Shown here piece after piece: positions 9,146 through 31,627 of a stretch of DNA of 64,000 nt. The notes under the pieces were generated by a model. The model ran no database searches. It saw only the letters and a program-made list of their open reading frames with translations, and was not told where the DNA came from. The stretch's first letter is position 1; each line of letters opens with the position of its first letter. The translations under genes and the position numbers were made by a program. The DNA is from an uncultured Pelagibacteraceae bacterium (GTDB taxonomy: Bacteria; Pseudomonadota; Alphaproteobacteria; Pelagibacterales; Pelagibacteraceae), in NCBI GenBank assembly GCA_902631255.1, contig CACOXS010000003.1:5692-69691 (forward strand), written 5' to 3'.

Positions 9146-9218
9146 TAAATCCTTTTCATTAATTTATTGAATTTTTGATATGGATATAGCATTGTCCTTT
9201 AATCATATCAATTTTTTT

Positions 9219-14556: not shown

Positions 14557-15351
14557 ATGTTAAGTAACAATCCATTTTCAATTTTATCAGAAACCATTTC
14601 ACCCTTTGCAATGCAATCTTTCATTATTGCTATGGTTTTGTTGATTGCAGTAGGAACTATTATTCAAATGATACATCACAAAAATTTGACTTATTTTTTT
14701 AACAACGCGAAAAAAGCAAAGCTTTCAGCAACAAAAAAATTAGGAGTTGGAGAAAAAGTTTCTGTAATTGCTAAAACGACAGTTGTTGATATTGGCACAA
14801 CTTCTGAATTAGGGTTTGGTAAAAGAAGACTTGCCCATGTTCTAGGAATGTATGGCACAATTTTATTTTGGGTGTCTTCAGCTATTTTAGTTTTTTGTTA
14901 CACAGGTGCTGATAAACCAAGTTCCCAAACTTGGTCAATGATTTGGCATGCAGGAGCAATATTAACATGTTTAGGTGGATATTGGTTTTGGTTTTTTTTA
15001 AGAGTTGATGTTTCAGCAGAAGCTCATCCTTGGTATAGGATTATAAAAGCTGATTTATTTGTTTTAGCATTACTTGCGTGTTCAACTTTTGGGTTAGCTT
15101 GGTCATTCACACAATTTAATGGGCAAATAGGTTTGTCTTATTTGTTTTTAATTTTATTTGTTGCATCTAACTTAATTTTATTTGGTGGTGTTTATTGGTC
15201 GAAATTTGCTCACATGTTTTATAAACCTGGAGCAGCTATCCAAAAAAATTTAGCAGAGGCAGATGGGTCTAGAGATAACTTACCTCCACCAGCTGATGCC
15301 CCAGAACAATTTGGCCTGGGTATAAAAAGAGAAGAGCCAAAACATTATTAA
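14557..15351 (+). CDS. aprM: Adenylylsulfate reductase membrane anchor AprM
   Basis: Five TM segments, WSKFAHMFYKP, directly upstream of aprB. Confidence 0.88.
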   Translation: MLSNNPFSILSETISPFAMQSFIIAMVLLIAVGTIIQMIHHKNLTYFFNNAKKAKLSATKKLGVGEKVSVIAKTTVVDIGTTSELGFGKRRLAHVLGMYGTILFWVSSAILVFCYTGADKPSSQTWSMIWHAGAILTCLGGYWFWFFLRVDVSAEAHPWYRIIKADLFVLALLACSTFGLAWSFTQFNGQIGLSYLFLILFVASNLILFGGVYWSKFAHMFYKPGAAIQKNLAEADGSRDNLPPPADAPEQFGLGIKREEPKHY

Positions 15352-15384
15352 TATGTTAATAGAAAAAGGAGAAAAATAAAAATT

Positions 15385-15855
15385 ATGTCAACTTTTGTAT
15401 ACATGACAAGATGTGATGGCTGTGGTCATTGCGTAGATATATGTCCTTCAGACATCATGCACATTGACGAAAATATAAGAAGAGCAAAAAATATTGAACC
15501 AAATTTTTGTTGGGAATGTTATTCGTGTGTTAAAGCATGTCCTAATCATGCAATTGATGTGAGAGGGTATGCTGATTTTGCTCCGATGGGTCACAGCGTT
15601 AGAGTTAGAAGAGAAGAAGAAAAAGGAACTATCTCTTGGAAAATTAAATTTAGAAACGGAACAGAGAAAAACTTCGTTTCACCTATAACCACAAAACCTT
15701 GGGGAAAATTTATTCCTAAACTTGCTGAAGGTGATACTCCTAACCAAGGTGAAATTAATTCACAAAGATTATATAGTGAGCCAGAAGGATTAAACACCAA
15801 TAAGGAATTACCATCGGTTCCAAAAGAGTCTTTTAAAAAAGGTGTTTATTATTAA
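15385..15855 (+). CDS. aprB: Adenylylsulfate reductase beta subunit
   Basis: Two 4Fe-4S motifs, CDGCGHCVDICP and CWECYSCVKACP; RGYADF. Confidence 0.97.
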   Translation: MSTFVYMTRCDGCGHCVDICPSDIMHIDENIRRAKNIEPNFCWECYSCVKACPNHAIDVRGYADFAPMGHSVRVRREEEKGTISWKIKFRNGTEKNFVSPITTKPWGKFIPKLAEGDTPNQGEINSQRLYSEPEGLNTNKELPSVPKESFKKGVYY

Positions 15856-17714
15856 TGGCTAAGCACAAAACACATTATGAGGAGTGTGATGTATTAGTTG
15901 TTGGTGGTGGAATGGCCGGCACAGGAGCAACATTTGAGGCAAGACATTGGGGGAGAGATTTAAAAATTGTTTGTGTTGAAAAAGCAAACATTGATCGAAG
16001 TGGAGCGGTTGCACAAGGTTTATATGCAATCAATTGTTACATGGGTATGCAATGGGATGAAAATCAACCTGAAGACCATGTAAGGTATGCCAGAAATGAT
16101 TTAATGGGAATGGTTAGAGAAGATTTGGGTTATGACATGGCTCGTCATGTAGACTCAACTGTTCATATGTTTGATGAGTGGGGTCTTCCAATGATGAAAA
16201 ACGAAAAAACTGGAAGATATCTAAGAGAAGGTAAATGGCAAATAATGATTCATGGAGAAAGTTATAAGCCAATTGTTGCCGAGGCAGCAAAAAAATCAGC
16301 AGATAAAATTTACAATAGAATAATGATCACTCATTTATTAATGGATGAGTCTCAAGAAAATAGAATTGGTGGTGCAGTTGGTTTTAATATGAGAACAGGT
16401 GATTTTCATGTGTTCAGAGCTAAGGCAGTTATAGTATCAGCTGGTGGAGCATCACATATTTTTAAACCAAGAGCGGTTGGAGAAGGTATGGGAAGAACTT
16501 GGTATGCACCATGGAGTAATGGGTCGGCTTACGCTTTACCTATCGCAGCAGGTGCAAAGATGACTCAAATGGAAAACAGAATTGTATTGTGCAGATTTAA
16601 AGATGGTTATGGACCAGTTGGAGCTTATTTTTTACATTTAAAAACATACACACAAAATGCTAATGGCGAAAATTACGAGAAAAAATGGTATGAACAAACT
16701 AAAGAATTAGTTGGAGAATATATTGATCATCATCCAACTCCCACTTGTTTAAGAAACCATGCCTTTATTCAGGAAGTTGCTGCAGGCGGTGGACCGATAC
16801 ACATGGTAACTAAAGAAGCTTTCCAAGATCCTCATTTAGAAACAGTAGGTTGGGAAAACTTTTTAGGAATGACCGTTGGTCAAGCAGTAGTTTGGGCATC
16901 TCAAAATATTGATCCCAAGTACACAAATCCTGAATTAACAACTTCTGAGCCTTACGTAATGGGATCTCACGCAACCTGCTCTGGCGCTTGGGTAAGTGGA
17001 CCAGAAGATCTATCTCCACCAGAATATTTCTGGGGTTATAACAGAATGCTTACAATCGATGGACTTTTTGGTGCTGGAGATACAGTAGGAGGTAGTGCTC
17101 ATAAATTTTCATCAGGTTCTTTTACTGAAGGAAGATTAGCTGCAAAAGCAGCAGTTAAATATATAGAGGATAAAAAAGCAGAAGGAATAAATGTTACTGA
17201 TAAACAATGTGATGATTTTAAAAAGGCAGTTTATAAACCTTTAGAGACTTACACAGTTGCTCAAAATGAGATCACTGGTGGAACCGTTTCACCAAGCTAT
17301 ATTTCTCCAATACAAGGATTACAAAGACTTCAAAAAATTATGGACGAGTATGTTGGGGGGATTACTTCAAATTACATGACTAACGGCAATATGCTTAAGA
17401 GGGCTCTTGAACTTTTAGAGTGGTTGCAAGAAGATTTGGAAAACGTGGGGGCTGAGGATTATCACCAATTAATGAGAGCTTGGGAGCTTAAACACAGAGC
17501 TCTAACCTCACAATGTGTAACAGAGCATACATTATTTAGAGAAGAAACTCGTTGGCCGGGTTATTATTACAGAGGCGATCATATGAAACTTGATGATGAA
17601 AATTGGCATTGCTTAACAGTTTCTAGAAGAGACCCTAAAACAGGAAAATTTACTCTGGAGAAAGTACCAGTATATCATATCGTTGACGAAAAAGAGAAGA
17701 AGAAGGCTTCGTAA
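15855..17714 (+). CDS. aprA: Adenylylsulfate reductase alpha subunit (FAD)
   Basis: VGGGMAG, RSGAVAQGL, WQIMIHGESYK, RFKDGYGPVGA, HKFSSGS. Confidence 0.97.
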   Translation: MAKHKTHYEECDVLVVGGGMAGTGATFEARHWGRDLKIVCVEKANIDRSGAVAQGLYAINCYMGMQWDENQPEDHVRYARNDLMGMVREDLGYDMARHVDSTVHMFDEWGLPMMKNEKTGRYLREGKWQIMIHGESYKPIVAEAAKKSADKIYNRIMITHLLMDESQENRIGGAVGFNMRTGDFHVFRAKAVIVSAGGASHIFKPRAVGEGMGRTWYAPWSNGSAYALPIAAGAKMTQMENRIVLCRFKDGYGPVGAYFLHLKTYTQNANGENYEKKWYEQTKELVGEYIDHHPTPTCLRNHAFIQEVAAGGGPIHMVTKEAFQDPHLETVGWENFLGMTVGQAVVWASQNIDPKYTNPELTTSEPYVMGSHATCSGAWVSGPEDLSPPEYFWGYNRMLTIDGLFGAGDTVGGSAHKFSSGSFTEGRLAAKAAVKYIEDKKAEGINVTDKQCDDFKKAVYKPLETYTVAQNEITGGTVSPSYISPIQGLQRLQKIMDEYVGGITSNYMTNGNMLKRALELLEWLQEDLENVGAEDYHQLMRAWELKHRALTSQCVTEHTLFREETRWPGYYYRGDHMKLDDENWHCLTVSRRDPKTGKFTLEKVPVYHIVDEKEKKKAS

Positions 17715-17735
17715 CACCATATTTCAAAATTCTTT

Positions 17736-18086
17736 ATGGACCTTTTGAAAAAATCTGATGAGGAGATATTCACGATAGCCAAGCCTTATTGGGAAAATCT
17801 TGTAAGAGCCTCAAATATGAAAGATTATGGCGGCTTTACAAGAGATTTCTCTACCCAAATGCTGTTTGGAGCTAACGAAGTAGAGCTTGGAAAGCAATGG
17901 GCTAACAATAAGATTATCACCAATTTAAATGAGACTTACGAACCTTTCGGAACATTAAGAAGAGGTGATCATATTACTGTATTGATTAAGCAGACTAATA
18001 AGGAAGTACCTGGAGAATTTTTAGGAAGGCTGGTTCTTGGTATTGAGGATGGAGAAGTTAAAATTTTTGGAGCCACAATATATTAA
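17736..18086 (+). CDS. Hypothetical protein, possibly NTF2/SnoaL-like alpha+beta fold
   Basis: 116-aa ORF 21 nt after aprA; helical N-terminus then beta-strand pattern. Confidence 0.7.
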   Translation: MDLLKKSDEEIFTIAKPYWENLVRASNMKDYGGFTRDFSTQMLFGANEVELGKQWANNKIITNLNETYEPFGTLRRGDHITVLIKQTNKEVPGEFLGRLVLGIEDGEVKIFGATIY

Positions 18087-18093
18087 TTAAAGT

Positions 18094-18121
18094 TTGACAA
18101 TTTTTCTGCTGGTGCTATTGA
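18094..18121 (+). promoter_or_regulatory. Candidate sigma70 promoter
   Basis: Perfect TTGACA at 18094, then TGCTATTG extended -10-like element. Confidence 0.35.
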
Positions 18122-18129
18122 GGATGTAG

Positions 18130-18264
18130 ATGCACCTTTCAAATATAAAAATTCTACAAAAAATCTTAAATTATAAAACAGCATTAATTAAAACAGGAAT
18201 TTTTTCAGCTATATTAGCTTGTTGGGGTGTAATATTATTTGGAACTTTTTTAACTTTTAAATAA
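18130..18264 (+). CDS. 44-aa microprotein with C-terminal TM helix (not in ORF track)
   Basis: MHLSNIKILQKILNYKTALIKTGIFSAILACWGVILFGTFLTFK*; GAGGA RBS upstream. Confidence 0.55.
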   Translation: MHLSNIKILQKILNYKTALIKTGIFSAILACWGVILFGTFLTFK

Positions 18265-18290
18265 TTTTTTAAAAAAGTTAATTATTTTAA

Positions 18291-19376
18291 ATGGAAGTAT
18301 TTTTACCAATAGCGCAAGTACATGTTACTGCTATTGAAATTATTTTATTAAGTGCTTTAGTTGGAGTTTTATCAGGACTATTTGGAGTAGGGGGTGGTTT
18401 TTTGATGACACCTTTTTTAATTTTTTTAGGTGTTCCACCAGCTTATGCCGTTGCTAATGAAGCAAATAACATTCTAGCTACCTCTGTTTCTGGATCAACT
18501 ACTCATTATCTAAAAAATACATTGGATTATAAAATGGGTTTTATGATTGTCATTGGTGGTGCAATAGGAACTATTATTGGTATTTATACATTCACATATT
18601 TTAAAGACATTGGTAAAATAGATACTGTTATCTCACTTGCTTACATGTATATCTTGGCAATTATTGGAACTTTAATGCTTGTTGAAAGTCTTGGTGAGAT
18701 TGATAAGGCTAGGAAAAATACTATTATAAAACGAAAATTACACGTTCATTATTGGATACATGGTCTTCCATTTAGGATGAGATTTCCTAAATCAAAATTA
18801 TATGAGAGCGCATTCACGCCAATTATCATTGGTTTATTTGTAGGTTTTATAGCAGCAATTATGGGTATTGGGGGAGCTTTCATATTAGTTCCTGCAATGA
18901 TTTATATAATAGGTATGCCCACAAAATTAGTTCCGGGAACTTCTTTGTTTGTAACTATTTTTGTAAGTGTCATCGTAACTTTTTTACATGCATTCAATTA
19001 TGGATCAATTGATTTAATTTTAGTTTTAATGTTGGTTATTGGTTCGATAATTGGAGTACAAACAGGTCAAAAAATTGGTCAATCAATTGAAAGTTCTGGA
19101 CTAAAAGCGCTATTAGCAGTTTTATTATTAATTGTTGGAATTGCAATTGCGTATGACACATTTTTTGTTGATCATACAATGAATGGTATCACTAAGGTTG
19201 CAGAGAAAGACCTAACCCCATTATCAGTTTTAGTTCAAAAATTTTCTAAAGATATGCCAATTATATATAGTTTATTTTCTATATTCTTTGCTATAGCATT
19301 GGGTGTGGCAGCGGCATTTATTCGAAGATTTTTATCTGATTTAAAAAAAAAGCACTTTAGTAAACCAGCTAAATAA
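18291..19376 (+). CDS. TauE/SafE-family sulfite exporter with C-terminal extension
   Basis: GLFGVGGGFLMTP and MGIGGAFILVP repeats, VPGTSLF. Confidence 0.88.
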   Translation: MEVFLPIAQVHVTAIEIILLSALVGVLSGLFGVGGGFLMTPFLIFLGVPPAYAVANEANNILATSVSGSTTHYLKNTLDYKMGFMIVIGGAIGTIIGIYTFTYFKDIGKIDTVISLAYMYILAIIGTLMLVESLGEIDKARKNTIIKRKLHVHYWIHGLPFRMRFPKSKLYESAFTPIIIGLFVGFIAAIMGIGGAFILVPAMIYIIGMPTKLVPGTSLFVTIFVSVIVTFLHAFNYGSIDLILVLMLVIGSIIGVQTGQKIGQSIESSGLKALLAVLLLIVGIAIAYDTFFVDHTMNGITKVAEKDLTPLSVLVQKFSKDMPIIYSLFSIFFAIALGVAAAFIRRFLSDLKKKHFSKPAK

Positions 19377-19381
19377 AAATT

Positions 19382-20548
19382 TTAAGCACTTCGGTATAAT
19401 TTGGTCATTACGAATTCTCTATGACCTAAAGCTTCAGCACAAGTGAGTCTACCATTGGCAACTTTTAAAGTTGTTTTAATTAATTCATCTCCAGCTTCAG
19501 ATAAATTCATTTCTCTTGAGAGAATTTTTGAAACATCACAATCAATATGTTCTCCCATAGATTTAACTGTTAAAGGGTTTGCAGTTAATTTTATAACTGG
19601 TTCAATTGGGTTACCAACAATATTACCCTGACCAGTAGGGAATAGATGAATATTAAATCCCGCAGCTGCTTGTAGCGTTACACACTCCGCCGCAGCAGAT
19701 GAAGTATCCATGAAGTATAGACCTTTTCCTTTTTTTGGTTCTTCAGCTGGTTCCAAAACATCAACAAATTTACAATTTCCTATTTTTTGAAAATTTCCAA
19801 AAGCTTTTTCTTCAATAGTCGTTAAACCACCTGCTATATTTCCTGCAGTTGGTTGACTTTCAGAAAGGTCATCCGTTGCTTCTTTCAAAATAAAATCGTT
19901 ATAGGCACTCCAAGTCTTCATAAACTTATCTGAAGCTTCTTTTGTTGCACCTCTTGTAGCACAAACTTTTTCTGCTCCTGTCAGTTCTGATGTTTCCCCA
20001 AAACATAAATGAACTCCAAGTGGCTCAAGTTTATCCATTAAATTTCCAACAGTTGGATTGGAAGCTAAACCGGAAGTGGTATCAGACTCACCACATTTTA
20101 CTGAAATCCATAAATCACTTATCGGGCATTCTTCTCTCTGTATTTCAGAGGCCCACATAACAAATTCTTGAGCTTTTTTTGAAGCTTTCATTACAGTTCC
20201 AATATCACCAGTACGTTCAATATGGAAACCTTCAACTGGCTTTCCAGTTTTCGCAATTCCATCTACTATTCTTTTAGTCCATTTGGGTTCAATACCAATC
20301 ACAATTACTGCCGCAACATTTGGGTTGCTACCAGTTCCAATCATTGTTCTAAAATGCAATTCTAAATCTGCTCCAAATTGTAATCTTCCATAAGAATGGG
20401 GAAGAGCTATTGTTCCTTTAATGTTATTTGCAACTGCTTCAGCACATGCGTTTGAAATATCATCAACAGGTAAAATAATTACATGGTTTCTTGTACCTGC
20501 TCTACCATTTTCTCTTTTATAACCTAAAAAACTTTTTGGAATTTCCAT
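19382..20548 (-). CDS. suyB: (R)-sulfolactate sulfo-lyase beta subunit (UxaA family)
   Basis: [48 protein letters not shown]; paired with a SAF subunit in a sulfonate context. Confidence 0.85.
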
Positions 20549-20552
20549 CTAA

Positions 20553-20837
20553 TTACCACTTTTTTGTTTTGACATTATGAACGTGCACGTGTTGACCTTT
20601 TTTAATTGCTTTGACTACTTTACCTATATCGTGACCGTATTTTAGAATCGTATCTCCTTCATTTAAATCAATCATTGCAATTTTATGGCCTAAAGGGATT
20701 TCATCTGCTGATTGAATGTTTACTGAGCTGTCATTCTCCATAATCCAACAATTACAATCTTGTTTTGGAGTAATTTTTTCTATAACGACTACACCAACAT
20801 TGTCTTTTTTGTCGTGAATTATAATATCTGTTGACAT
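20553..20837 (-). CDS. suyA: Sulfolactate sulfo-lyase alpha subunit (SAF domain)
   Basis: DNVGVVV, IPLGHKIA, KYGHDIG, HVHVHN. Confidence 0.85.
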   Translation of the reverse strand: MSTDIIIHDKKDNVGVVVIEKITPKQDCNCWIMENDSSVNIQSADEIPLGHKIAMIDLNEGDTILKYGHDIGKVVKAIKKGQHVHVHNVKTKKW

Positions 20838-20952
20838 TTATATAGTGTCGATTTGTTTGTTTGAATTTTCTAAAATCTTATATATTAATCGCAAAAATTA
20901 ACAATTAATTTTTATAAAAATTGTTCTAAAGTAATTTAGAAAGGTTCTACAA

Positions 20953-22737
20953 ATGACTAAAATGACAACTGAGGAAGCTTTTGTAAAAGTTTTACAAATG
21001 CATGGTATTGAACACGCTTTTGGAATTATTGGTTCTGCGTTCATGCCTATATCTGATATTTTCCCAGATGCAGGAATTACTTTTTGGGATGTAGCACACG
21101 AAACAAACGGTGGTTTGATTGCCGATGGTTACACAAGATCTACTGGAAAAATGTCTATGGTCATTGCACAAAATGGACCAGGCATAACAGGATTAGTAAC
21201 GCCAATAAAAACTGCATATTGGAATCACACACCTTTACTATTAGTAACCCCGCAAGCTGCAAATAAAACTATGGGACAAGGTGGTTTTCAAGAAGTAGAA
21301 CAAATGAATTTATTTAAAGATATGGTTTGTTATCAAGAGGAAGTAAGAGATCCCTCAAGAATGGCCGAAGTTTTGAATAGAGTAATAGAAAAAGCAATAA
21401 GAGGTTCTGCACCAGCACAAATAAATGTACCGAGAGATTATTGGACCCAAGTTATAGATATAGAATTACCACCAATAGTTAGATTGGAAAGACAAGGTGG
21501 TGGAGCCGAAGCAATAGATAAAGCTGCAAAACTTTTATCAAATGCAAAATTTCCTGTAATTTTATCTGGAGCAGGTGTTGTTATTGGCGGTGCAATTGAG
21601 GAAACTAAAAAACTTGCTGAAAAACTAGATTCACCTGTTTGCTCAGGATACCAACACAATGATAGTTTTCCTGGAAGTCATCCCTTAGCAGTTGGACCAT
21701 TGGGATATAATGGATCAAAAGCTGCCATGGAATTAATTTCCAAAGCCGATGTAGTTTTAGCTTTAGGAACAAGATTAAATCCTTTTTCAACTCTACCAGG
21801 TTATGGAATTGATTATTGGCCAAAAAAAGCAAGTATAATTCAAGTTGATATGAATCCAGATAGAATTGGATTAACTAAAAAAGTTACAGTTGGAATTAGT
21901 GGTGATGCAAAATTAGTGGCAACGCAGATTTTAGAAAAATTGTCTTCAAATGCAGGCGATACGGATAGACAAAAAAGAAAAGATTTAATTCACCAAACAA
22001 AATCAGCATGGTTACAAAAATTATCAAGTTTAGATCATGAAGATGATGATGAAGGAACAGTTTGGAATAAAGAAGCTAGAGAAAGAGACGCAGATAGAAT
22101 GTCACCAAGACAAGCTTGGCGAGCAATCCAAGCAGGTATGCCTGAGGATGTGATTATATCAAGTGATATTGGAAATAACTGCGCAATTGGAAATGCTTAT
22201 CCAACATTTGAAAAGCCAAGAAAATATTTAGCACCAGGTTTATTTGGTCCTTGTGGTTATGGTTTTCCATCGATCTTGGGTGCAAAGATAGGTTGTCCCG
22301 ATACACCAGTTATCGGTTTTGCAGGAGATGGTGCATTTGGAATTAGTATGAACGAGATGAGTTCATGTGCTAGAGAAGAATGGCCAGCAATTACAATGGT
22401 AATTTTTAGAAACTATCAGTGGGGTGCAGAAAAAAGAAATACAACTCTTTGGTTTGATAATAATTTTGTAGGAACCGAACTTGATCCTGAATTAAGTTTC
22501 GCAAAAGTAGCAGATGCTTGTGGTTTAAAAGGCATTACTGTGAAAACGATGGAAGAAACTACTGCAGCCATTAAACAGTCTTGTGAAGATCAAAAGAAAG
22601 GTATTACAACATTCATAGAAGTAATTCTAAATCAAGAGCTTGGTGAACCATTTAGAAGAGATGCTATGAAAAAGCCAGTAAGAGTAGCTGGTATTAAAAA
22701 AGAAGATATGAAGAAGCAACCTTCTTTGATTTCTTAA
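20953..22737 (+). CDS. xsc: Sulfoacetaldehyde acetyltransferase (ThDP)
   Basis: MTTEEAFVKVLQMHGIEHAFGIIGSA, GDGAFG, NYQWGAEKRN, LGEPFRRDAM: Xsc signatures. Confidence 0.95.
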   Translation: MTKMTTEEAFVKVLQMHGIEHAFGIIGSAFMPISDIFPDAGITFWDVAHETNGGLIADGYTRSTGKMSMVIAQNGPGITGLVTPIKTAYWNHTPLLLVTPQAANKTMGQGGFQEVEQMNLFKDMVCYQEEVRDPSRMAEVLNRVIEKAIRGSAPAQINVPRDYWTQVIDIELPPIVRLERQGGGAEAIDKAAKLLSNAKFPVILSGAGVVIGGAIEETKKLAEKLDSPVCSGYQHNDSFPGSHPLAVGPLGYNGSKAAMELISKADVVLALGTRLNPFSTLPGYGIDYWPKKASIIQVDMNPDRIGLTKKVTVGISGDAKLVATQILEKLSSNAGDTDRQKRKDLIHQTKSAWLQKLSSLDHEDDDEGTVWNKEARERDADRMSPRQAWRAIQAGMPEDVIISSDIGNNCAIGNAYPTFEKPRKYLAPGLFGPCGYGFPSILGAKIGCPDTPVIGFAGDGAFGISMNEMSSCAREEWPAITMVIFRNYQWGAEKRNTTLWFDNNFVGTELDPELSFAKVADACGLKGITVKTMEETTAAIKQSCEDQKKGITTFIEVILNQELGEPFRRDAMKKPVRVAGIKKEDMKKQPSLIS

Positions 22738-22776
22738 GATCTTTTAATTAACAAGCAATTATCGTAATCTTTCTTT

Positions 22777-24081
22777 ATGGAAGTAGTTAATGATAATAGT
22801 TGCAGTTGGGTTAATGATTTAGATCTAAGAACAAATATCCAAACACTTTCGTCTGATTTGAGTTGCGAATGGTTAGTCGTAGGTGCAGGCTATACAGGAC
22901 TATCAGCTGCAAGAAAATTAGGTCAGCTTTATCCAAATCAAAAAATTTTATTAGTTGATGCTCAATTAGCAGGAGAGGGTGCGAGTTCCAGAAATTCTGG
23001 TTATTTAGTTGATACTACACTTAATGATGGTTTCACTTCTAATAAAGAATTAGAAAATTATAAAAAAAAATCTGATATTTATAAATTAGGTATAGATGCA
23101 GTTAAAAAATTCATTAAGGAATATCAGGTTGATTGTGATTGGAATGAGTGTGGAAAATATTTTGCATCATCAAATATTGAGGATAAAAAAAACTTAAATA
23201 ATTTTTCAGACACTCTGTCTAAACTGGGATTTGAGCATAATTTGTTATTTCAAAAAGATCTTACAAAAAGATTGGGTACTAACTTCTATAATATTGCTCT
23301 TCACACCAAAGGGGGAATTTTATTACATCCAGGCAAATTAGTAAGAGCAATGATTGATACATTGCCTGAGAATGTAATACTTTATGAGAATTCATTGTTA
23401 TTAAACTGGAAAAAGATTAATGGTTTAATAGATTGTAATTTCAAAAATGGCTCAATTAAATCAAAAAAAATAATCTTTGCCACTAATGGATTTCTTAAGT
23501 CTTTAGGTATCAAGGCAAATTATAATTTTCCAATTACCTTAACCGCAAGCATGACAAGGCCTTTAACTGAAAAAGAATTTAAATTAATTGGAGAACCAAA
23601 AGAGTGGGGTGTTTTACCTGTTAGACCAATGGGTGCAACGATTAGAATGACCAAAGATCGAAGAATTTTAATAAGAAATACTGCAGAAGTTCACAATCCA
23701 TCCCAGATGTCTAAAATTAATTTGGTAAAAAGATCTATAAAGCAAAAGATCGGTATTAAAAAAAGATTTCCACAATTGCCAGATGATATTATTCAATCAA
23801 CTTGGTCAGGAATTGTCTCAAGGACCAGAAATAGTTCTCAAATTTTTGAAAAAATTCAAGAAAACATATTTGTTGCAGGCTGTTACAATGGTTCAGGTAT
23901 TGGGGTAGGGACATTGTTTGGTGAACAAATTGCTATTAAAGCTAGTAATGAACACACAAAAGAAATTGAAACGATTGAGGCAAGAAATAAACCAACTTGG
24001 TTACCACCACAACCTTTTTTGGATTTAGGAGTAAAAGCCAGACTTATGTATGAAAGGTTTCGAGCTAGATCTGAAATTTAA
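22777..24081 (+). CDS. FAD-dependent amine oxidoreductase (DAO/PuuB-like)
   Basis: VVGAGYTGLSAA, GASSRNSG, CYNGSGIG. Confidence 0.85.
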   Translation: MEVVNDNSCSWVNDLDLRTNIQTLSSDLSCEWLVVGAGYTGLSAARKLGQLYPNQKILLVDAQLAGEGASSRNSGYLVDTTLNDGFTSNKELENYKKKSDIYKLGIDAVKKFIKEYQVDCDWNECGKYFASSNIEDKKNLNNFSDTLSKLGFEHNLLFQKDLTKRLGTNFYNIALHTKGGILLHPGKLVRAMIDTLPENVILYENSLLLNWKKINGLIDCNFKNGSIKSKKIIFATNGFLKSLGIKANYNFPITLTASMTRPLTEKEFKLIGEPKEWGVLPVRPMGATIRMTKDRRILIRNTAEVHNPSQMSKINLVKRSIKQKIGIKKRFPQLPDDIIQSTWSGIVSRTRNSSQIFEKIQENIFVAGCYNGSGIGVGTLFGEQIAIKASNEHTKEIETIEARNKPTWLPPQPFLDLGVKARLMYERFRARSEI

Positions 24082-24084
24082 CCT

Positions 24085-24108
24085 GGGAGTTCTGTTGCCA
24101 GGTGCCCC
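24085..24108 (-). repeat. GCAA-tetraloop hairpin repeat, copy 1
   Basis: Minus strand GGGGCAC-CTG-GCAA-CAG-AACTCCC; near-identical copy at 24487-24510. Confidence 0.75.
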
Positions 24109-24169
24109 GAACTTTGTACCATTATTCGCAAATAATTTGAATTGAAAAGTCTTAAAATAGACTCTCAGT

Positions 24170-24191
24170 GCGGTACTAGTGCGGTCGAATT
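24170..24191. repeat. Two GCGGT repeats at 11-bp period
   Basis: GCGGTACTAGT GCGGTCGAATT; cores at 24170 and 24181. Confidence 0.8.
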
Positions 24192-24211
24192 TTCCATGCT
24201 ACACTTATTAT

Positions 24212-24400
24212 ATGATTTGGGTTTTAATTACATTGGGTTTGTTTGCATTTGCTTGGGCTCTGCTAGCAGATGGTCCTTGGTTATCAGATAAAAAAAAAGA
24301 AAAAATGCAAGAAAGCAAAACAAATAAACTTGTTCTAATTATAGGTTTTATATTTGCTGTAATTTTTATTATTGGAACACTTTCAGAGGTATTTAAATAG
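24212..24400 (+). CDS. 62-aa two-TM small membrane protein
   Basis: MIWVLITLGLFAFAWALLA-charged loop-LVLIIGFIFAVIFIIGTL; ATG start preferred over the GTG inside the repeats. Confidence 0.65.
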   Translation: MIWVLITLGLFAFAWALLADGPWLSDKKKEKMQESKTNKLVLIIGFIFAVIFIIGTLSEVFK

Positions 24401-24432
24401 CGGTCAAACTGCGGTACAACTGCGGTCAAACT
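24400..24432. repeat. Three GCGGT repeats at 11-bp period
   Basis: GCGGTCAAACT GCGGTACAACT GCGGTCAAACT; cores at 24400, 24411 and 24422. Confidence 0.85.
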
Positions 24433-24486
24433 ACAACTCTTTTTTAAAATAACGTTGATACTGCAAACTAAATTAACAAATGAGTA

Positions 24487-24510
24487 GGGGCGTTCTGTTG
24501 CCAGATGCCC
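24487..24510 (-). repeat. GCAA-tetraloop hairpin repeat, copy 2
   Basis: Minus strand GGGCAT-CTG-GCAA-CAG-AACGCCCC, directly after the stop of the 39-aa ORF. Confidence 0.75.
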
Positions 24511-24512
24511 TG

Positions 24513-24632
24513 TTATAAATTCATATCAGGCCAGTCTTTGTCATTATATCTATCAAGCTCTTTTTTAGTAAAGGGCCTGAATAATACCCAAGCAACAACA
24601 ATTACCAAAGCCAATAGAATTAATGTTTGCAT
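24513..24632 (-). CDS. 39-aa membrane microprotein, paralog A (not in ORF track)
   Basis: MQTLILLALVIVVAWVLFRPFTKKELDRYNDKDWPDMNL*; starts 3 nt after the M23 stop; homologous to 43437-43556. Confidence 0.7.
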   Translation of the reverse strand: MQTLILLALVIVVAWVLFRPFTKKELDRYNDKDWPDMNL

Positions 24633-24635
24633 AAT

Positions 24636-25439
24636 TTAGTTTATTACGGACATAGGATCTAGTCTAGTTTGAAACCAGTTAACTCTAAAATCGAGATGTG
24701 GACCAGTTGACCTTCCAGTTGAACCAACTGTTCCAATTATATCCCCTTGATTAATTTTATCTCCAACTGACACCATTACATTTTCAAGATGTGAGTAAAT
24801 AGTTGATATGCCATGACCATGATCCATAATTATTGTTCCACCAGTATAATAAAGATCATCTTCTGCCATAGTAACGATACCTGATCCAGATGATTTGATC
24901 ATAGTTCCTTGTTTTGCAGCAATATCAATTCCATAATGAGGCCATTTAGGTTTACCATTTAAAATTCTCTGGCTTCCATAGACACCACTAATGATACCTT
25001 CAACTGGCATAATAAATTGATTTTTGAAAAAGGGTAAATCTGAGTTTATTGCTCTTGCTTCACCAATTTTATTATTTTCCTCTTTAATTCTTTTATAAAC
25101 AGATTCTGGAGGAGTAACTTTACTTTCTTCTAAACCATCAATCCTTTGAATATTATATTTTCTTTTTAAAACTTTTTTTGTAATTCTATCTTTTTTTCCA
25201 TTAATTATTTTTGTTATAGTTAAATCAAATTTTCGATCTCTATCTATTCCAAAAACAAAATAACCTTCTTTTGATACTTTAACTTCTTTTTTGCCAATAA
25301 TAATTTTAGCTGATGGGTCTGTTAAACCAACTATGAAATGTCCTTGTAAAAATTTTCCCTTAAATTCAACAGCATTTAGATTAGTTGTGGTAAAAAAAAT
25401 TATTACAAATAAAAGTCTAGATATTATTTTGCAGTCCAT
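24636..25439 (-). CDS. M23-family metallopeptidase
   Basis: HYGIDIA, YSHL, GRSTGPHL motifs; signal peptide. Confidence 0.9.
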   Translation of the reverse strand: MDCKIISRLLFVIIFFTTTNLNAVEFKGKFLQGHFIVGLTDPSAKIIIGKKEVKVSKEGYFVFGIDRDRKFDLTITKIINGKKDRITKKVLKRKYNIQRIDGLEESKVTPPESVYKRIKEENNKIGEARAINSDLPFFKNQFIMPVEGIISGVYGSQRILNGKPKWPHYGIDIAAKQGTMIKSSGSGIVTMAEDDLYYTGGTIIMDHGHGISTIYSHLENVMVSVGDKINQGDIIGTVGSTGRSTGPHLDFRVNWFQTRLDPMSVIN

Positions 25440-26191
25440 CCACCATCAACCAATAAAGAAGTACCTGTAATCATTGATGCTGCATCAGAAGCTAGAAATA
25501 CCACGGCAGTTGCTACTTCAGATAATTCAGCAAATCTTCCAAGAGGAATATTGTTCAACATATCTCTTTTAAATTTTTTGTCTTTTAAAAACTTCTTCGT
25601 CATGGGGGTGACAACAAATGTTGGACAAACAGTATTAACTCTAATGTTAAATTTTGCTAGATCTATTGACATACCTTTTGTTAAACCCTCTAAACCAAAT
25701 TTATTCATATTATAAACACTTCTTATTGGTCCACCTACATGACCCATTTGTGATGACATATTAACAATACTACCACCAATTTTTTTTCTATTTTTTGATT
25801 TTATCATTTTAAGTGCACATAAATGTGCAAGATTAAACGTGGCTATTGTATTTATCTTAACCATATGTTCCATATCTTTAGTTTTTACTTTTGTAAAATG
25901 TGCAGGTCTATTATTGCCAGCGTTATTTATAAGAATATCTAGTTTAGATTGTTTGTTAATGATTTCTTTAATTTCATTATAATTTGTAATGTCACAAACA
26001 TAAGATTTACACTTTGTTTTAAATTTTTTTATTTTCTTTGAAACCTCATCTAAATCTTTTTTGGTTCTACTAATAATTATTAAATTTGCTCCTGCTTCTG
26101 CTAGAGCTATAGCGCAAGCTCTACCAATACCTTTACCCGCACCTGTTACGATTGCAGTCTTATTTTTGAAGTTATAATTTTTTAAGAACAT
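25424..26191 (-). CDS. SDR oxidoreductase, HpsO-like (candidate dihydroxypropanesulfonate 2-dehydrogenase)
   Basis: TGAGKGIG, catalytic YxxxK (YNMNK); SSQMGHVGG and RVNTVCPTF recall HpsO-type SDRs; SDR call is firm, substrate is inferred. Confidence 0.6.
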   Translation of the reverse strand: MFLKNYNFKNKTAIVTGAGKGIGRACAIALAEAGANLIIISRTKKDLDEVSKKIKKFKTKCKSYVCDITNYNEIKEIINKQSKLDILINNAGNNRPAHFTKVKTKDMEHMVKINTIATFNLAHLCALKMIKSKNRKKIGGSIVNMSSQMGHVGGPIRSVYNMNKFGLEGLTKGMSIDLAKFNIRVNTVCPTFVVTPMTKKFLKDKKFKRDMLNNIPLGRFAELSEVATAVVFLASDAASMITGTSLLVDGGWTAK

Positions 26192-26784
26192 TATAAAAAT
26201 AATATTTTAATATCAGTGTAAATCAACTCAATAGCAACAATTAGTATTGCCAATAAACCAGCCCATGCAATCCACTTATATTTCTTAATCCAATTGGAAA
26301 TTAATGTTGCAGCAGTAGCCATTAAAACAATTGATAAAACTAGACCAAAAATTAGCAAATAATAATGATCACCAGCTGCCCCAGCAACACCCAAAACATT
26401 GTCCAAACTCATTGTAAAGTCGGCCAATAAAATTGTCCAAATAGCTTTTAAGAAACTTGAATTGTCTACTTTTATATCACTATCGTGATTAGATCCTTTC
26501 ACAACATCAACATACAATTTGTAAACTATATAAAGTAAAAGAAGACCACCAATTAACCTTAAACCTGTAATTTGTAGTAGGTAAGCAGTTAATAAAGTTA
26601 AAATAATTCTTAAAACTACAGCACCACCTATACCCCAAAAAATAATCTTTTTTCTTTGTTCTAATGGAAATTTTGATGCGACCATCCCAATGATGATTGC
26701 ATTGTCGCCAGCTAAAACTAGATCGATTAAAATAATTTGTGTTAGAATAGTAATTTGTTCTGGAGTAATTAAATCTGTGAACAT
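26191..26784 (-). CDS. TerC-family membrane protein (YjbE type)
   Basis: IDLVLAGDNAIII, ADFTMSLDNVLGVAGAA. Confidence 0.92.
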   Translation of the reverse strand: MFTDLITPEQITILTQIILIDLVLAGDNAIIIGMVASKFPLEQRKKIIFWGIGGAVVLRIILTLLTAYLLQITGLRLIGGLLLLYIVYKLYVDVVKGSNHDSDIKVDNSSFLKAIWTILLADFTMSLDNVLGVAGAAGDHYYLLIFGLVLSIVLMATAATLISNWIKKYKWIAWAGLLAILIVAIELIYTDIKILFL

Positions 26785-28379
26785 TAACTTCTAAGTATCA
26801 TATCAGCACCTTTTTCTGCAATCATTATTGTAGGTGCATTAGTGTTACCTGAAGTTATATTTGGCATTATTGAAGCGTCAATCACTCTAAGATTATTTAA
26901 ACCTTTCACCTTAAGTTTTTCATCTACTACGGCCATCTCATCTTGCCCCATTTTACAAGTACCCACTGGATGAAAAATAGTTTGAGTAAATTCTGAACCA
27001 GCTTTTACAAGCTCTTCATCATCATTAATATCTATTCCTGGTCTATATTCTTCTGGTTTATATTTCTTAAATGTTTCTGACTCCATGATAATTTTTCTTG
27101 TTAGTTTTAAACCTTTTGCTGCAACCATACGATCATGGTCGGTTGAGAGATAATTGAGTTTTACTTTTGCATAAATTCTAGAATCTTTATCTGTTATATT
27201 TACATGACCTCTGCTAGTCGGTCTTATATTAGAGACAGTTGGAGTGAATGCATGAAAGTCATGATTTTTCGTTGCACCTAATGTATCCATACTCATTGGC
27301 TGTACATGCCACTGAAGATCTGGCAATTCTAAAGATGGATCGCTTTTGGCAAACATACACATTTGGCTAGCACCCATAGTCATTGGACCGCTACGATTAA
27401 AAACATACTCAAGCCCAATCATTAGCTTTCCAAACAGACTATTAATCTTTTTATTTAAAGATTTTAATCCATGAACTTTGTAGATTGGTCTAAACATAAG
27501 GTGATCTTGAAGATTCTCTCCAACTCCTTTTAAATCGTTAACGATGTCAATTCCTAAGTCTTTTAATTTTTTTGAATTTCCAATTCCAGATGTTTGTAAA
27601 ATCTGTGGAGAACCAATAGATCCTGAGGAAAGAATCACCTCTCTATTTGTTGAGACTTTTTTAAGTTCATTTTCCTGCCAATACTCGACACTTTTAGCAG
27701 TTTTATTTTCGAAGTTGATTTTCTTTACATGAGCATTAGTAATTATCTTCAAATTATTTCTATTTTTAATAGGATTTAAATATCCAACAGCAGTGCTACA
27801 TCTAAAACCATCTTTTTCAGTGACTTGAAAATAACCACAACCATGATTATCACCAGTATTAAAATCTTTTGTCTTCGGGATTCCAAATTCTTCTGCAGCA
27901 TTTTGAAATTCATTTAATAATGGCAACTGAATTCTTTGATCAGAGACAGAAAGTGGCCCCCCAACACCATGAAAATCATCTTTGCCTCGCTCTTGATTTT
28001 CCGCTTTGATAAAATAAGGAAGAACATCATCCCAACCCCAACCAGTATTTCCTAATTGTCGCCAAACATCATAATCTCTGCTTTGTCCTCTGATATAAAG
28101 CAGTCCGTTGATCGAAGAGCTCCCACCTAAAGTTTTTCCTCTTGGATAACGAATTGATCGATTATTCATTGTCTCATCAGGTTCTGTTTTGTAACACCAA
28201 TCAACAGATGGATTGTGCATTGTTTTAAAATATCCAACAGGAATATGTATCCACGGATAATTGTCTTTACCCCCAGCTTCGATCAATAAAACTTTATTTT
28301 GAGAATTTTCAGAAAGTCTATTTGCTAGAACACATCCAGCCGATCCAGCACCAATAATTATAAAATCAAAGTTTTCCAT
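26784..28379 (-). CDS. GMC-family FAD dehydrogenase (choline-dehydrogenase-like; candidate isethionate dehydrogenase)
   Basis: GAGSAG, RGKTLGGSSSING, GENLQDH, HPVGTCKMG, GNTNAP. Confidence 0.85.
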   Translation of the reverse strand: MENFDFIIIGAGSAGCVLANRLSENSQNKVLLIEAGGKDNYPWIHIPVGYFKTMHNPSVDWCYKTEPDETMNNRSIRYPRGKTLGGSSSINGLLYIRGQSRDYDVWRQLGNTGWGWDDVLPYFIKAENQERGKDDFHGVGGPLSVSDQRIQLPLLNEFQNAAEEFGIPKTKDFNTGDNHGCGYFQVTEKDGFRCSTAVGYLNPIKNRNNLKIITNAHVKKINFENKTAKSVEYWQENELKKVSTNREVILSSGSIGSPQILQTSGIGNSKKLKDLGIDIVNDLKGVGENLQDHLMFRPIYKVHGLKSLNKKINSLFGKLMIGLEYVFNRSGPMTMGASQMCMFAKSDPSLELPDLQWHVQPMSMDTLGATKNHDFHAFTPTVSNIRPTSRGHVNITDKDSRIYAKVKLNYLSTDHDRMVAAKGLKLTRKIIMESETFKKYKPEEYRPGIDINDDEELVKAGSEFTQTIFHPVGTCKMGQDEMAVVDEKLKVKGLNNLRVIDASIMPNITSGNTNAPTIMIAEKGADMILRS

Positions 28380-28511
28380 TACAAGTTGAATAATTTTTTA
28401 ATAAATCTTTTTAAATCATCTTTACACTCATATTAATCAATTGTCACTTGTGTCAGGTTTGTTTTTCTGATTGTATGTATTTGTTAAATTTAACTAACAA
28501 GAGGGAAAATA

Positions 28512-29606
28512 ATGAAAAAAATCATTTCAATGTTATTTGCATCTGTCTTAGTGCTTGGATTTATTTCTAATGCTAATGCTGCAAAAACACTAAAATGTCA
28601 GACTGTTCTTAACACTAAAGCTGATGAAGTTAAAATGTTAAAGGACTTTACTGATACAGTAACTGAATTAACAGCTGGTTCGTTAAAATTCGAAATTTTA
28701 CCTGCGGGCGCTGTTGTTGGAGTTAAGGAAACTCTTGATGCTGTAGATAAAGGTCTGATCGATTGTGGATTCGCATGGACACACTATTGGTCAGGTGATC
28801 ATCCTGCCGCTATGCTATTTGGATCTCCAGTAGCTGGTGGTGGAGTTGGTATCGACAATATCGCATTCCTTTCATGGTTCCAATACGGTGGTGGTAAAGA
28901 ATTATACGACCAACTTTGGAAAGAAATGGGAAGAGACATCAAAGGATTTATGATTCAACCAGTTGGTCCAGAAGCTTTAGGTTGGTTTCCAAAACCAATT
29001 AAGGATATGGCTGACTTTAGAAAATATAAGTTTAGAACTCCTCCAGGAATTCCAGGACAAACTTATAAAGACATTGGTATAGCATCTGTTGCAATGGGTG
29101 GTGGAGATATTCTTCCAGCTCTTGAGGCAGGTACGATCGATGCTGCTGAGTGGTGTTGTCCAAAACCAGACTTAACATTTGGTTTCCAAAAAGTATTAAA
29201 GCACTATTACTTACAAGGTTTACACCAAGTAGTCGTAAATGCTGACTTTTATATTACTGGAAAAACTTATAAAGCTATGACCGCTCATGAGAAGAAGTCA
29301 CTTGAAGTAGCTGCTAATGCATCATTAGCGAAATCTTTAAGTTACAGAATCTATGAGAATGGTAAAGCGTTACAAGAGCTAACTACTAAACATGGAGTAA
29401 TTTTAGAAGATACACCTTCAGATTATTTCACAGAATACATGGCTGCAGCAAAAGCTTCTTTAAATAAGAATGCTAAAGAGAACAAATTTTTCAATGAAGT
29501 TTATAATTCAATGAAAAACTTTGCTGATATTGCTGTTCCTTTCTGGAGTGGTGCTCAAATGTCTAATGCGAAGCTAGGAATGGCTCACGCGGCGACATTA
29601 AAGTAA
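28512..29606 (+). CDS. dctP: TRAP transporter substrate-binding protein (DctP, TakP-like)
   Basis: Signal peptide, LPAGAVV, FRTP, ALEAGTIDAAEW; RBS GAGGG. Confidence 0.9.
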   Translation: MKKIISMLFASVLVLGFISNANAAKTLKCQTVLNTKADEVKMLKDFTDTVTELTAGSLKFEILPAGAVVGVKETLDAVDKGLIDCGFAWTHYWSGDHPAAMLFGSPVAGGGVGIDNIAFLSWFQYGGGKELYDQLWKEMGRDIKGFMIQPVGPEALGWFPKPIKDMADFRKYKFRTPPGIPGQTYKDIGIASVAMGGGDILPALEAGTIDAAEWCCPKPDLTFGFQKVLKHYYLQGLHQVVVNADFYITGKTYKAMTAHEKKSLEVAANASLAKSLSYRIYENGKALQELTTKHGVILEDTPSDYFTEYMAAAKASLNKNAKENKFFNEVYNSMKNFADIAVPFWSGAQMSNAKLGMAHAATLK

Positions 29607-29628
29607 TCAGTAATTAATCTTGATTTTT

Positions 29629-29663
29629 TAGAGCGGACTTTAAAAGTCCGCTCTAGTTTTTTT
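29629..29663 (+). terminator. Intra-operon stem-loop/terminator after dctP
   Basis: 12-bp stem TAGAGCGGACTT/AAGTCCGCTCTA followed by GTTTTTTT. Confidence 0.8.
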
Positions 29664-29675
29664 AACTAAAATTTT

Positions 29676-30296
29676 ATGGCAGACGAACCCAGTAAATTAG
29701 ATATCTCTGATGAAATGATTGCCGAAAGGCGAGGCGGGTCGGGAAAAATGCCTGATGACATGCCGTTATGGATGGCAAAATCTATAATAAATATTGATAA
29801 ATTTAGTAAGTGGATTGGTAATATTGTTTGTTGGATACTGATGCCACTCATTTTTGCAATGACCTATGAAGTACTTGCACGAAAATTATTTTTAGCTCCA
29901 ACGATCTGGGCTTATGACATTAGCCGTTTTTTATATGGTGCATTATTTATGCTTGGTGCAGGATACGCTCTTTCTAGAGGAGTTCATATAAGGGCAGATT
30001 TTTTATACAGAAATTTTAAAATAAAAAACCAAGGTCTAATTGATTTTTGGTTATATCTTTTATTTTATTTTCCAGGCTTAATTGTTTTTCTTTATATGAC
30101 AATAGGCTTTGTTGGAGAGTCTATTCAAAGAGGTGAGAGGGGCATGGATACTACTTGGATGCCGTATATGTGGCCAATCAAAACATGTTTGTTAATTGGA
30201 ATAATTTTTTTATTAATCCAAGGTGTTTCAGAATTATTTAAGAGTTACTGGGCAGCAAAAAAAGGTGAATGGCCAGGAGAAGAAAGTAAAAAATGA
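29676..30296 (+). CDS. dctQ: TRAP small permease
   Basis: Four TM segments; YEVLAR, APTIWAYD, HIRAD. Confidence 0.9.
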   Translation: MADEPSKLDISDEMIAERRGGSGKMPDDMPLWMAKSIINIDKFSKWIGNIVCWILMPLIFAMTYEVLARKLFLAPTIWAYDISRFLYGALFMLGAGYALSRGVHIRADFLYRNFKIKNQGLIDFWLYLLFYFPGLIVFLYMTIGFVGESIQRGERGMDTTWMPYMWPIKTCLLIGIIFLLIQGVSELFKSYWAAKKGEWPGEESKK

Positions 30297-31627
30297 TTGC
30301 TGAATTAATAGACCCGGCAATTTTAGGTTTCGTTCTTGTAGGCGTGATGCTTTTTGCAATATTTGTCGGATTTCCCATTTCATTTACACTAATATTTCTA
30401 GGATTTGTTTTTGGATACTTAGGTTTTGGAAAATTGGTTTTTTATTTGATGACACTACAATTTTCCATGGTTATGACCGAACAAACTCTTGCCGCCGTAC
30501 CGCTCTTTGTCTTTATGGGTATTATGATGGAACAAGCTGGTTTAATGGAAAGATTATTTTCATCATTCCAAATGATGTTAGCAAAAGTAAAAGGATCTTT
30601 ATATTATGCAGTTTTATTTGTTTCGGTAATATTTGCTGCTGCAACAGGTATTGTTGGTGCATCAGTTACAATTTTAGGAATAATGGCTGCAAAATCCATG
30701 AATAGATCCGGATATGACGTTAAACTTGCGGCTGGAACAATCACTGCAGGTGGAACTTTGGGAATATTAATTCCACCTAGTATCATGCTTGTGGTAATGG
30801 GGCCAATCATGGAAATTCCAGTTATAGACTTATTTGCAGCTGCGATTATACCAGGAATTCTTCTTGCAAGTTTGTACGCAGCTTACACAACAATCAGATG
30901 CATGATAAATCCAAAACTGGGTCCAGTTTTACCTGAAGATATGAGGGCAGCTAGTATGAAAGAAGTATGGATTGAATTCTTTCTTGGATTAGTTCCTCCT
31001 GCTGCATTAGTTTTTGCTGCTTTAGGAAGTATTTTATTTGGTTTTGCTACACCTACTGAAGCAGCAGGATGTGGTGCAATGGGAGCTCTTTTATTATCTT
31101 TAGCATATAAAAAATTAACTCTACCAAAACTTCAAGAGGCTTTAGTTAAAACTCTTGAAATCACAGCTTTGATTATGGTCTTAGTTGCTGCCTCTAATTT
31201 TTTTGGTGCAGTTTTTGCAAGATTAGGAACACCAACATTGTTAACTGAATTTTTACTAGGTTTAGAAATGAACAAATATTTAATTCTAGCAATGATAATG
31301 GTTATGATATTCTTATTAGGCTGGCCTCTTGAATGGGTACCTATTGTAATGATTATTATTCCAATAATTTTACCTCTAGTTGAGGCACTTGGATTTAATT
31401 TAACTTGGTTTGCAATATTAGTCGCGGTTAATTTACAAACCGCCTGGCTTTCACCACCTGTAGCCCTATCAGCTTATTTTTTAAAAGGAGTTGTTCCTGA
31501 GTGGGATTTAAAAGATATTTATTATGGAATGATGCAATTTATGGTTCTACAAATCATAGGATTAATCTTAATTGTAATATTCCCCAAGATCGCTCTTTGG
31601 CTACCTACTCTCTTATATGGACAATAG
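30293..31627 (+). CDS. dctM: TRAP large permease
   Basis: LAAVPLF, GTLGILIPPS, ATPTEAA, LSPPVA. Confidence 0.93.
   Translation: MIAELIDPAILGFVLVGVMLFAIFVGFPISFTLIFLGFVFGYLGFGKLVFYLMTLQFSMVMTEQTLAAVPLFVFMGIMMEQAGLMERLFSSFQMMLAKVKGSLYYAVLFVSVIFAAATGIVGASVTILGIMAAKSMNRSGYDVKLAAGTITAGGTLGILIPPSIMLVVMGPIMEIPVIDLFAAAIIPGILLASLYAAYTTIRCMINPKLGPVLPEDMRAASMKEVWIEFFLGLVPPAALVFAALGSILFGFATPTEAAGCGAMGALLLSLAYKKLTLPKLQEALVKTLEITALIMVLVAASNFFGAVFARLGTPTLLTEFLLGLEMNKYLILAMIMVMIFLLGWPLEWVPIVMIIIPIILPLVEALGFNLTWFAILVAVNLQTAWLSPPVALSAYFLKGVVPEWDLKDIYYGMMQFMVLQIIGLILIVIFPKIALWLPTLLYGQ

Follow-up and report, generated by a model that had tools for sequence, protein, structure and literature searches.

A core Pelagibacter organosulfonate neighbourhood with APS reductase as probable sulfite sink

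Genes of the sulfonate and sulfite block

We analysed a 64 kb stretch of DNA (the window) from an uncultured Pelagibacteraceae bacterium, and in particular the block at 14557-31627, which carries genes for organosulfonate breakdown together with those for adenosine 5'-phosphosulfate (APS) reductase (Apr). The source assembly is 722 kb, 57% complete and about 30% GC. The protein collection lists closed congeners with the same gene order under the name Ca. Pelagibacter, hence the window belongs to a SAR11 genome. Every gene named in an earlier, sequence-only reading of this DNA was found as an intact open reading frame (ORF) in its place and of the right family. Three ORFs within the block had gone unlisted there: orf116 (17736-18086), an M23 peptidase gene (24636-25439) and a short ORF (24179-24400). 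Judged by strand, the block comprises at least five transcription units, namely aprMBA-orf116-tauE (+), suyAB (-), xsc-DAO (+), GMC-terC-SDR1-M23 (-) and dctPQM (+). Families were assigned by NCBIfam equivalog (TIGR) and Pfam cut-offs; TauE, TerC, GMC, DAO and all three Dct proteins score higher than their Pfam cut-offs.

The first unit begins with aprM (14557..15351, +), the membrane anchor of lineage I APS reductase, which has no Pfam match and is 42-52% identical to the AprM encoded upstream of aprBA in other Proteobacteria. It precedes, in the same orientation, aprB (15385..15855, +; TIGR02060, 188 bits against a cut-off of 136), which has two 4Fe-4S motifs at residues 10 and 42, and the FAD subunit gene aprA (15855..17714, +; TIGR02061, 989 against 642 bits), which has the FAD motif; order, scores and motifs are those of a lineage I AprMBA. 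The following orf116 (17736..18086, +) is a conserved accessory gene of one aprMBA subtype, with an NTF2-like/DUF4019-like relationship as the only lead. It stands after aprA in all the Pelagibacterales loci we examined and, of 80 non-SAR11 aprMBA loci (our outside comparison set, for which neighbours within 8 kb were scored), in 11. All of these 11 loci also carry sat, and orf116 was rejected as a substitute for ATP sulfurylase (Sat). A TauE/SafE-family exporter gene (18291..19376, +; PF01925, 155 bits, above cut-off), presumably for sulfite or sulfate, closes the unit; homologues (41-52%) adjoin apr in a few other Alphaproteobacteria. Several unrelated Alphaproteobacteria (L132, L136, L174, L226) have TauE paired with Alph_Pro_TM (PF09608) beside aprMBA, and SAR11 keeps TauE alone. 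Further, a CysQ-like inositol-monophosphatase-family gene and a Cys/Met pyridoxal phosphate enzyme gene lie 4-8 kb upstream of aprM (6967-7737 and 9180-10394), syntenic in congeners; the CysQ-like protein could recycle 3'-phosphoadenosine 5'-phosphate or its phosphosulfate (PAPS).

The two desulfonation units are divergent. The suyB gene (19382..20548, -) encodes the large subunit of sulfolactate sulfo-lyase, 65% identical to the UxaA-family lyase of the Cupriavidus hpsNOP cluster and 69% to that of the Paracoccus suyAB cluster, and suyA (20553..20837, -) the small subunit, 43-49% identical to the SuyA of both. The pair is thus a split UxaA-family lyase highly similar to the SuyAB of clusters for 2,3-dihydroxypropane-1-sulfonate (DHPS). 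Sulfoacetaldehyde acetyltransferase is encoded by xsc (20953..22737, +; TIGR03457, 969 against 676 bits, with the thiamine diphosphate motif), found in 145 of 150 congeners; these are kin and not independent, and their counts are descriptive only. The 115 nt spacer shared by suyAB and xsc (20838..20952) is conserved in length and in part of its sequence, measuring 110-117 nt with conserved blocks in 18 of 20 closed congeners. In a scan for promoters and terminators the count did not exceed that of shuffles (78 vs 90), and the promoter scan of this spacer was not above chance.

At the far end of the block lie the genes for a TRAP (tripartite ATP-independent periplasmic) transporter: dctP (28512..29606, +), dctQ (29676..30296, +; PF04290) and dctM (30293..31627, +; TIGR00786, above cut-off). 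DctP is a putative orthologue of SAR11_0864, as judged from synteny, from 83-96% identity to syntenic congeners and from homologues in hpsN/hpsP clusters. SAR11_0864 binds isethionate and both R- and S-DHPS (PMC11485210, PMC13335735). An NCS1-family permease gene (31653-33110) follows dctM in most congeners, between the TRAP genes and a slot occupied by a second short-chain dehydrogenase (SDR2) or an HpsP homologue. The opposite strand encodes a GMC flavin dehydrogenase (26784..28379, -) and a TerC/YjbE membrane protein (26191..26784, -; TIGR03717, above cut-off). Among eight loci of non-SAR11 Alphaproteobacteria with a binding protein 68-77% identical to DctP, GMC is adjacent in seven, hpsP is present in six, hpsN in five, and terC lies beside the TRAP genes in three.

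The sequence-only reading had proposed the uncharacterised members of the block as candidates for sulfonate steps, and for the GMC enzyme this linkage to TRAP lends support. Isethionate dehydrogenase IseJ is a flavin enzyme encoded next to a TRAP transporter (PMC4334477), and the window likewise has a flavin dehydrogenase gene beside a sulfonate TRAP, with Xsc present. Since Hps enzymes cover DHPS in the non-SAR11 loci and the transporter also binds isethionate, we suggest the GMC protein as the leading candidate for an isethionate dehydrogenase, probably with an IseJ-like role. The likeness to the iseJ-iseKLM genes of Ruegeria pomeroyi (SPO2356-2359; PMC4334477), where a flavin dehydrogenase beside TRAP feeds Xsc, is one of gene context; no IclR regulator was seen in the window, and the binding protein is of the SAR11_0864 cluster. 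Identity alone is no proof of such a role: the best NCBIfam matches of the GMC protein are choline dehydrogenase models, and rhizobial GMC proteins of unknown context are 53% similar, against 47-54% for the sulfonate-linked ones. It is nevertheless unlikely that the protein is a choline dehydrogenase (BetA), as commonly annotated, with an incidental position, as its score falls below the BetA cut-off (508 vs 732 bits) and the gene adjoins the sulfonate TRAP across several families, alongside hps genes, much as iseJ does.

The remaining members seem accessory or doubtful. The DAO/PuuB-like FAD oxidoreductase (22777..24081, +; DAO family, above Pfam cut-off) is encoded in 19 of 20 closed congeners and absent from the nearest relatives of the window, G100 and G139, which are 91-100% identical to the window's proteins; the amine oxidoreductase previously taken as a core enzyme is therefore a dispensable accessory gene. 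It was rejected as TauY (21% identity, E 1e-14, to TauY of a tauABC-tauXY-xsc cluster), and a search for a TauX partner gave no match. An M23 peptidoglycan peptidase gene, not sulfur-related (24636..25439, -; PF01551), forms the tail of the GMC-terC-SDR unit. Between it and terC, SDR1 (25424..26191, -) has the spacing of a short-chain dehydrogenase catalytic triad (S147, Y160, K164), so the family of the 'HpsO-like SDR' stands. The HpsO label does not: identity to Cupriavidus HpsO is 27%, against 49% for a real HpsO (in L330), and S147 is followed by QM, with Gln at +1, instead of the S-L-Q of HpsO with Gln at +2, a spacing that sets HpsO specificity. A 29%-identical SAR11 short-chain dehydrogenase that could not be matched to SDR1 is active on R-DHPS (PMC11131964), and promiscuous DHPS oxidation by SDR1 is possible, its substrate being uncertain. 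SDR1 is of a different subtype from that of most closed congeners (57-60%; 88% to G101). Some genomes have two tandem SDR1 paralogues at this slot (L052:11744-13272 in G004; L144, L147, L149), which suggests two subtypes with different substrates.

SDR2 (33115..33867, +), beyond the range of the sequence-only reading, occupies the slot after the NCS1 permease in which G004, G031, G054, G104 and G116 encode a 334-aa Zn dehydrogenase, 41% identical to Cupriavidus HpsP. PDB searches with SDR1, DctP and the HIT protein described below brought up no structure close to any of them. A 23-nt direct repeat (24085-24107 and 24488-24510) flanks the short ORF (24179-24400) and resembles the 3' end of alphaproteobacterial tmRNA (RF01849, E 0.003, below gathering score). 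It was not found at the corresponding site in 46 related loci; contig C1 has a further two copies, separated by 2.4 kb. Possibly the repeat is the scar of a tmRNA-targeting element.

Conservation of the block and a second sulfonate cluster

The aprMBA-orf116-tauE genes lie 4-8 kb from xsc, with suyBA in between, in 18 of the 20 closed congeners; the remaining two have 34-40 kb between apr and xsc. A sister genus keeps the core cluster in 6/6 loci, and with this degree of retention the clustering is not due to chance. Between xsc and M23 the closed congeners have a variable cargo slot of up to 13 kb, and the TRAP genes are within 20 kb in 14 of 20 and farther or absent in six. The block is the usual Pelagibacter layout, by which SAR11, the most numerous bacteria of the sea, would free sulfur from the sulfonates of algae and animals and oxidise the sulfite; this is mostly known biology, and the locus is ordinary for the genus. 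One departure is that a YeiH/SuyZ-like exporter gene, found after suyB in 20/20 closed congeners, is missing from the window lineage; an assembly artefact was rejected, as the near-identical G100 and G139 also lack it.

The same aprMBA, suyAB, xsc and SAR11_0864-0866 genes, the same unlinked hpsN and the same proposed role for Apr as sulfite sink are described for Pelagibacter ubique HTCC1062 (PMC5069961, PMC12636525, PMC11485210, PMC11131964), and IMG gene numbers in the supplement of PMC11131964 match the layouts of G004 and G104. Unlike the HTCC1062 type, the window lineage is without the YeiH/SuyZ-like exporter and has SDR2 in place of HpsP. The claim that C2 and C3 desulfonation enter one sulfite sink is supported by the distribution of xsc in Pelagibacterales outside the genus, where it occurs in 17 of 17 aprA-bearing and 0 of 9 aprA-lacking genomes. 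The idea is already in print: Apr has been described as the sink for sulfite from organosulfur breakdown in the absence of sat (PMC5069961), with suyAB and xsc named as the sulfite sources (PMC12636525).

As the source assembly is 57% complete and even lacks hisD, its own absences mean little, and nothing could be concluded from searching it for hpsN, sat, pta, tauA and ackA; relatives were therefore used for absence calls. Its one PTA_PTB match was rejected as Pta, being the C-terminus of a 715-aa frame like the malic-enzyme-length matches of congeners. The sequence-only reading had left tpa, pta and hpsN as unassigned steps, which did not hold up: in congeners, all three lie together with tauABC in a second cluster. 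This cluster (G101, G021, G004) holds alanine dehydrogenase, a class III aminotransferase (Tpa by context), tauABC, a ComC-like dehydrogenase, a Pta-like protein and, at its end, hpsN. G100 and G139, the nearest relatives, have it at full length, and on this basis we assign the three steps. A second hisD-family gene occurs in 25/25 near-closed congeners, and the one copy tested shares 58% identity with Cupriavidus HpsN. A search of four closed congeners gave no acetate kinase. In vitro, SAR11 HpsN, HpsP and an HpsO-like SDR are able to oxidise DHPS; their genes are not clustered. The Cupriavidus pinatubonensis hpsNOP-suyAB and Paracoccus suyAB-suyZ clusters are thus related through SuyB and the congeners' HpsN and HpsP, and differ in that SAR11 has dispersed hps genes, no true HpsO, no LacI regulator and Apr instead of a molybdo-oxidase.

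Candidates for the exit of APS

The missing sat, by contrast, was confirmed: Sat is found neither in the window nor in its assembly, nor in 20 single-contig congeners, and ATP sulfurylase is the only truly absent known enzyme. Papers since 2008-2016 have reported that SAR11 keeps APS reductase without ATP sulfurylase. The sat-aprMBA operon of the Allochromatium vinosum type (lineage I sulfur oxidisers; PMC2211403) has the same aprM-aprB-aprA order and AprM anchor, and differs from the window by its sat, which lies within 8 kb in 51 of the 80 outside loci; in the window the sulfite would come from sulfonates. Sat-family genes of 9/150 congeners are divergent, 23-26% identical to apr-linked Sat, and were not seen beside apr. 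These genes (L102-L110) encode proteins of 340-370 aa, one next to a glycerophosphotransferase, which suggests that they sit in surface-polymer islands. CysD was found in neither of two SAR11 genomes tested. We know of no APS exit in SAR11.

Within the window the one candidate, a weak one, is a HIT-family nucleotide hydrolase (14058..14456, +; PF01230) encoded 100 nt upstream of aprM, which might hydrolyse or phosphorolyse APS in place of Sat with no ATP, or only ADP, gained. The gene stands upstream of aprM in all 20 closed congeners and in 19 of 20 further ones, the latter a biased count since they were partly picked for short aprA-xsc spacing. A 45-50% homologue holds a second position, after suyB, in four of six sister-genus loci, and APS is a substrate of Fhit and of some HIT proteins (PMC4613722). 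Set against this, an orthologue is lacking in 10/10 aprA-bearing genomes of another family (f202), in 2/7 sister-genus genomes and in all 80 outside loci, including those without sat nearby, and the gene is the last of a pab operon, 3 nt after pabC. APS:phosphate adenylyltransferase (APAT, of the GalT branch) has the motif HxHxQ. The protein has HCHFHLI, of hydrolase type, and was rejected as an APAT. Altogether we find the HIT protein an improbable replacement for Sat.

We favour over it, tentatively and at a little under an even chance, the discharge of APS by a small HxGH nucleotidyltransferase encoded elsewhere. All 18 apr loci from two other SAR11 lineages encode a protein of this type (124-131 aa); its gene sits immediately upstream of aprM in one lineage and, in the other, follows orf116 together with an APS-kinase-like gene. 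It is found in 25/25 near-closed Pelagibacter genomes against 0/6 apr-less relatives, and wherever a copy was read its gene overlaps a kinase-like gene. Two small genomes of another family, streamlined Alphaproteobacteria of 1.1-1.2 Mb, have it as the last gene of an assimilatory sulfate operon, after cbiX, uroporphyrinogen methylase, sulfite reductase, PAPS reductase, DUF2061 and a kinase-like gene (L286:3267-8404, L287:1354-6539); Sat and CysD were not found in these genomes (85-89% complete). In G296 it is fused to a kinase and lies next to a sulfotransferase, and again Sat and CysD were not found. These three separate contexts all need APS chemistry.

The predicted model (pLDDT 87) has a Sat-type HUP fold with HxxH and aligns with Thermus Sat at Z 8.3 and rmsd 3.4 over 117 residues. 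Sat, NMNAT and PPAT all have this fold, and it does not tell which substrate is used. Like Sat and bifunctional PAPS synthase, the 124-aa candidate has an HxGH nucleotidyltransferase fold and is paired with, or fused to, an APS-kinase-like domain; it differs in having one third of the length of Sat, no PUA domain, no PF01747 match and a PF01467 match only below threshold. Three points speak against this assignment: the fold and the sequence are nearest NMNAT/PPAT (Z of about 10, above Sat); the Pelagibacter gene lies far from apr; and, present as it is in G100, it was not found in the window assembly at 57% completeness or in G139 and G002 at 91-92%. A literature search brought up no paper describing the kinase/nucleotidyltransferase pair, a weak hint that it is new.

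Proposed route and its meaning

We consider it probable, on the whole of the evidence, that the locus is a core Pelagibacter organosulfonate neighbourhood of several transcription units with Apr as the sulfite sink. The TRAP transporter would import isethionate and DHPS, as the binding by SAR11_0864 suggests. DHPS would be oxidised to sulfolactate by HpsN of the second cluster, and SuyAB, as assigned by family, would cleave sulfolactate to pyruvate and sulfite. Taurine would enter via TauABC and be converted by Tpa of the second cluster to sulfoacetaldehyde, to which isethionate would also lead, probably by the GMC enzyme. Xsc would then yield sulfite and acetyl phosphate, the latter taken by the Pta-like protein of the second cluster. 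By analogy with lineage I Apr, AprBA would in outline convert sulfite and AMP to APS and pass two electrons via AprM to the membrane, and TauE may export sulfite or sulfate. Reverse Apr delivers two electrons per sulfite to the quinone pool however APS leaves; pyrophosphorolysis of APS adds one ATP and hydrolysis none. Energy conservation from sulfite is hence plausible, and the main gain is likely to be carbon and detoxification, with a modest energy gain as a by-product.

Some findings weigh against this interpretation. Neither suyB nor xsc occurs within 8 kb in any of the 80 outside aprMBA loci, and f202 has apr and xsc and no suyB, so the linkage of C2 to C3 desulfonation is lineage history as much as necessity. 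From these counts and the aprA-lacking genomes, apr goes with desulfonation across the order, and the close packing of the genes belongs to Pelagibacteraceae. The metatranscriptome contigs (four studies) cover all bins and can neither rank genes nor show co-transcription, and are not used as evidence.

The sequence-only reading saw one integrated module, which the layout does not bear out: the units run in at least five directions, the block is interrupted by the variable slot and by a cell-wall peptidase gene, and TRAP lies beyond 20 kb or is absent in six of 20 closed genomes. That the whole is co-regulated and energy-conserving, with DAO, SDR, TerC and GMC all new sulfonate enzymes, is very doubtful even with the tight conserved linkage, the conserved divergent spacer and the linkage of GMC and terC to TRAP elsewhere, for DAO is missing in the nearest relatives, apr lies apart from xsc in two closed genomes and half of the pathway is in the second cluster. 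Transcripts of aprBA and SAR11_0864/0865 both fall in sulfur-limited stationary phase (PMC5069961), a drop that hits unrelated genes too. It may also be argued that sulfite is mainly exported by TauE (or YeiH), with Apr making only small amounts of APS and PAPS for sulfation with the APS-kinase-like protein. The exporter genes in the block, the overlap of the kinase-like and nucleotidyltransferase genes in congeners and their fusion next to a sulfotransferase in G296 fit this. It is highly improbable all the same, given that AprM is retained, implying membrane electron transfer, that apr tracks xsc, that the YeiH exporter is dispensable, and that aprAB are among the SAR11 core genes with the strongest purifying selection (PMC12636525).

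Returning to the neighbourhood with Apr as sulfite sink, the locus itself is ordinary, and the interest lies in the open APS-exit question and two leads, one of them outside the window. The comparison yields two small expressible candidate proteins, the nucleotidyltransferase first and the HIT protein second, and a GMC enzyme that is likely misannotated as choline dehydrogenase. We speculate, with somewhat less than even confidence in the combination, that a candidate miniature ATP sulfurylase (124 aa, NMNAT-like, e.g. L251:1489-1863) completes sulfite oxidation in SAR11, such that each sulfonate sulfur would yield respiratory electrons and substrate-level ATP, and that the GMC protein of the window is the isethionate dehydrogenase. 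Should the nucleotidyltransferase prove to be an ATP sulfurylase, it would represent a new and minimal form of this enzyme, and the most abundant marine heterotroph would be drawing energy from sulfonate sulfur.

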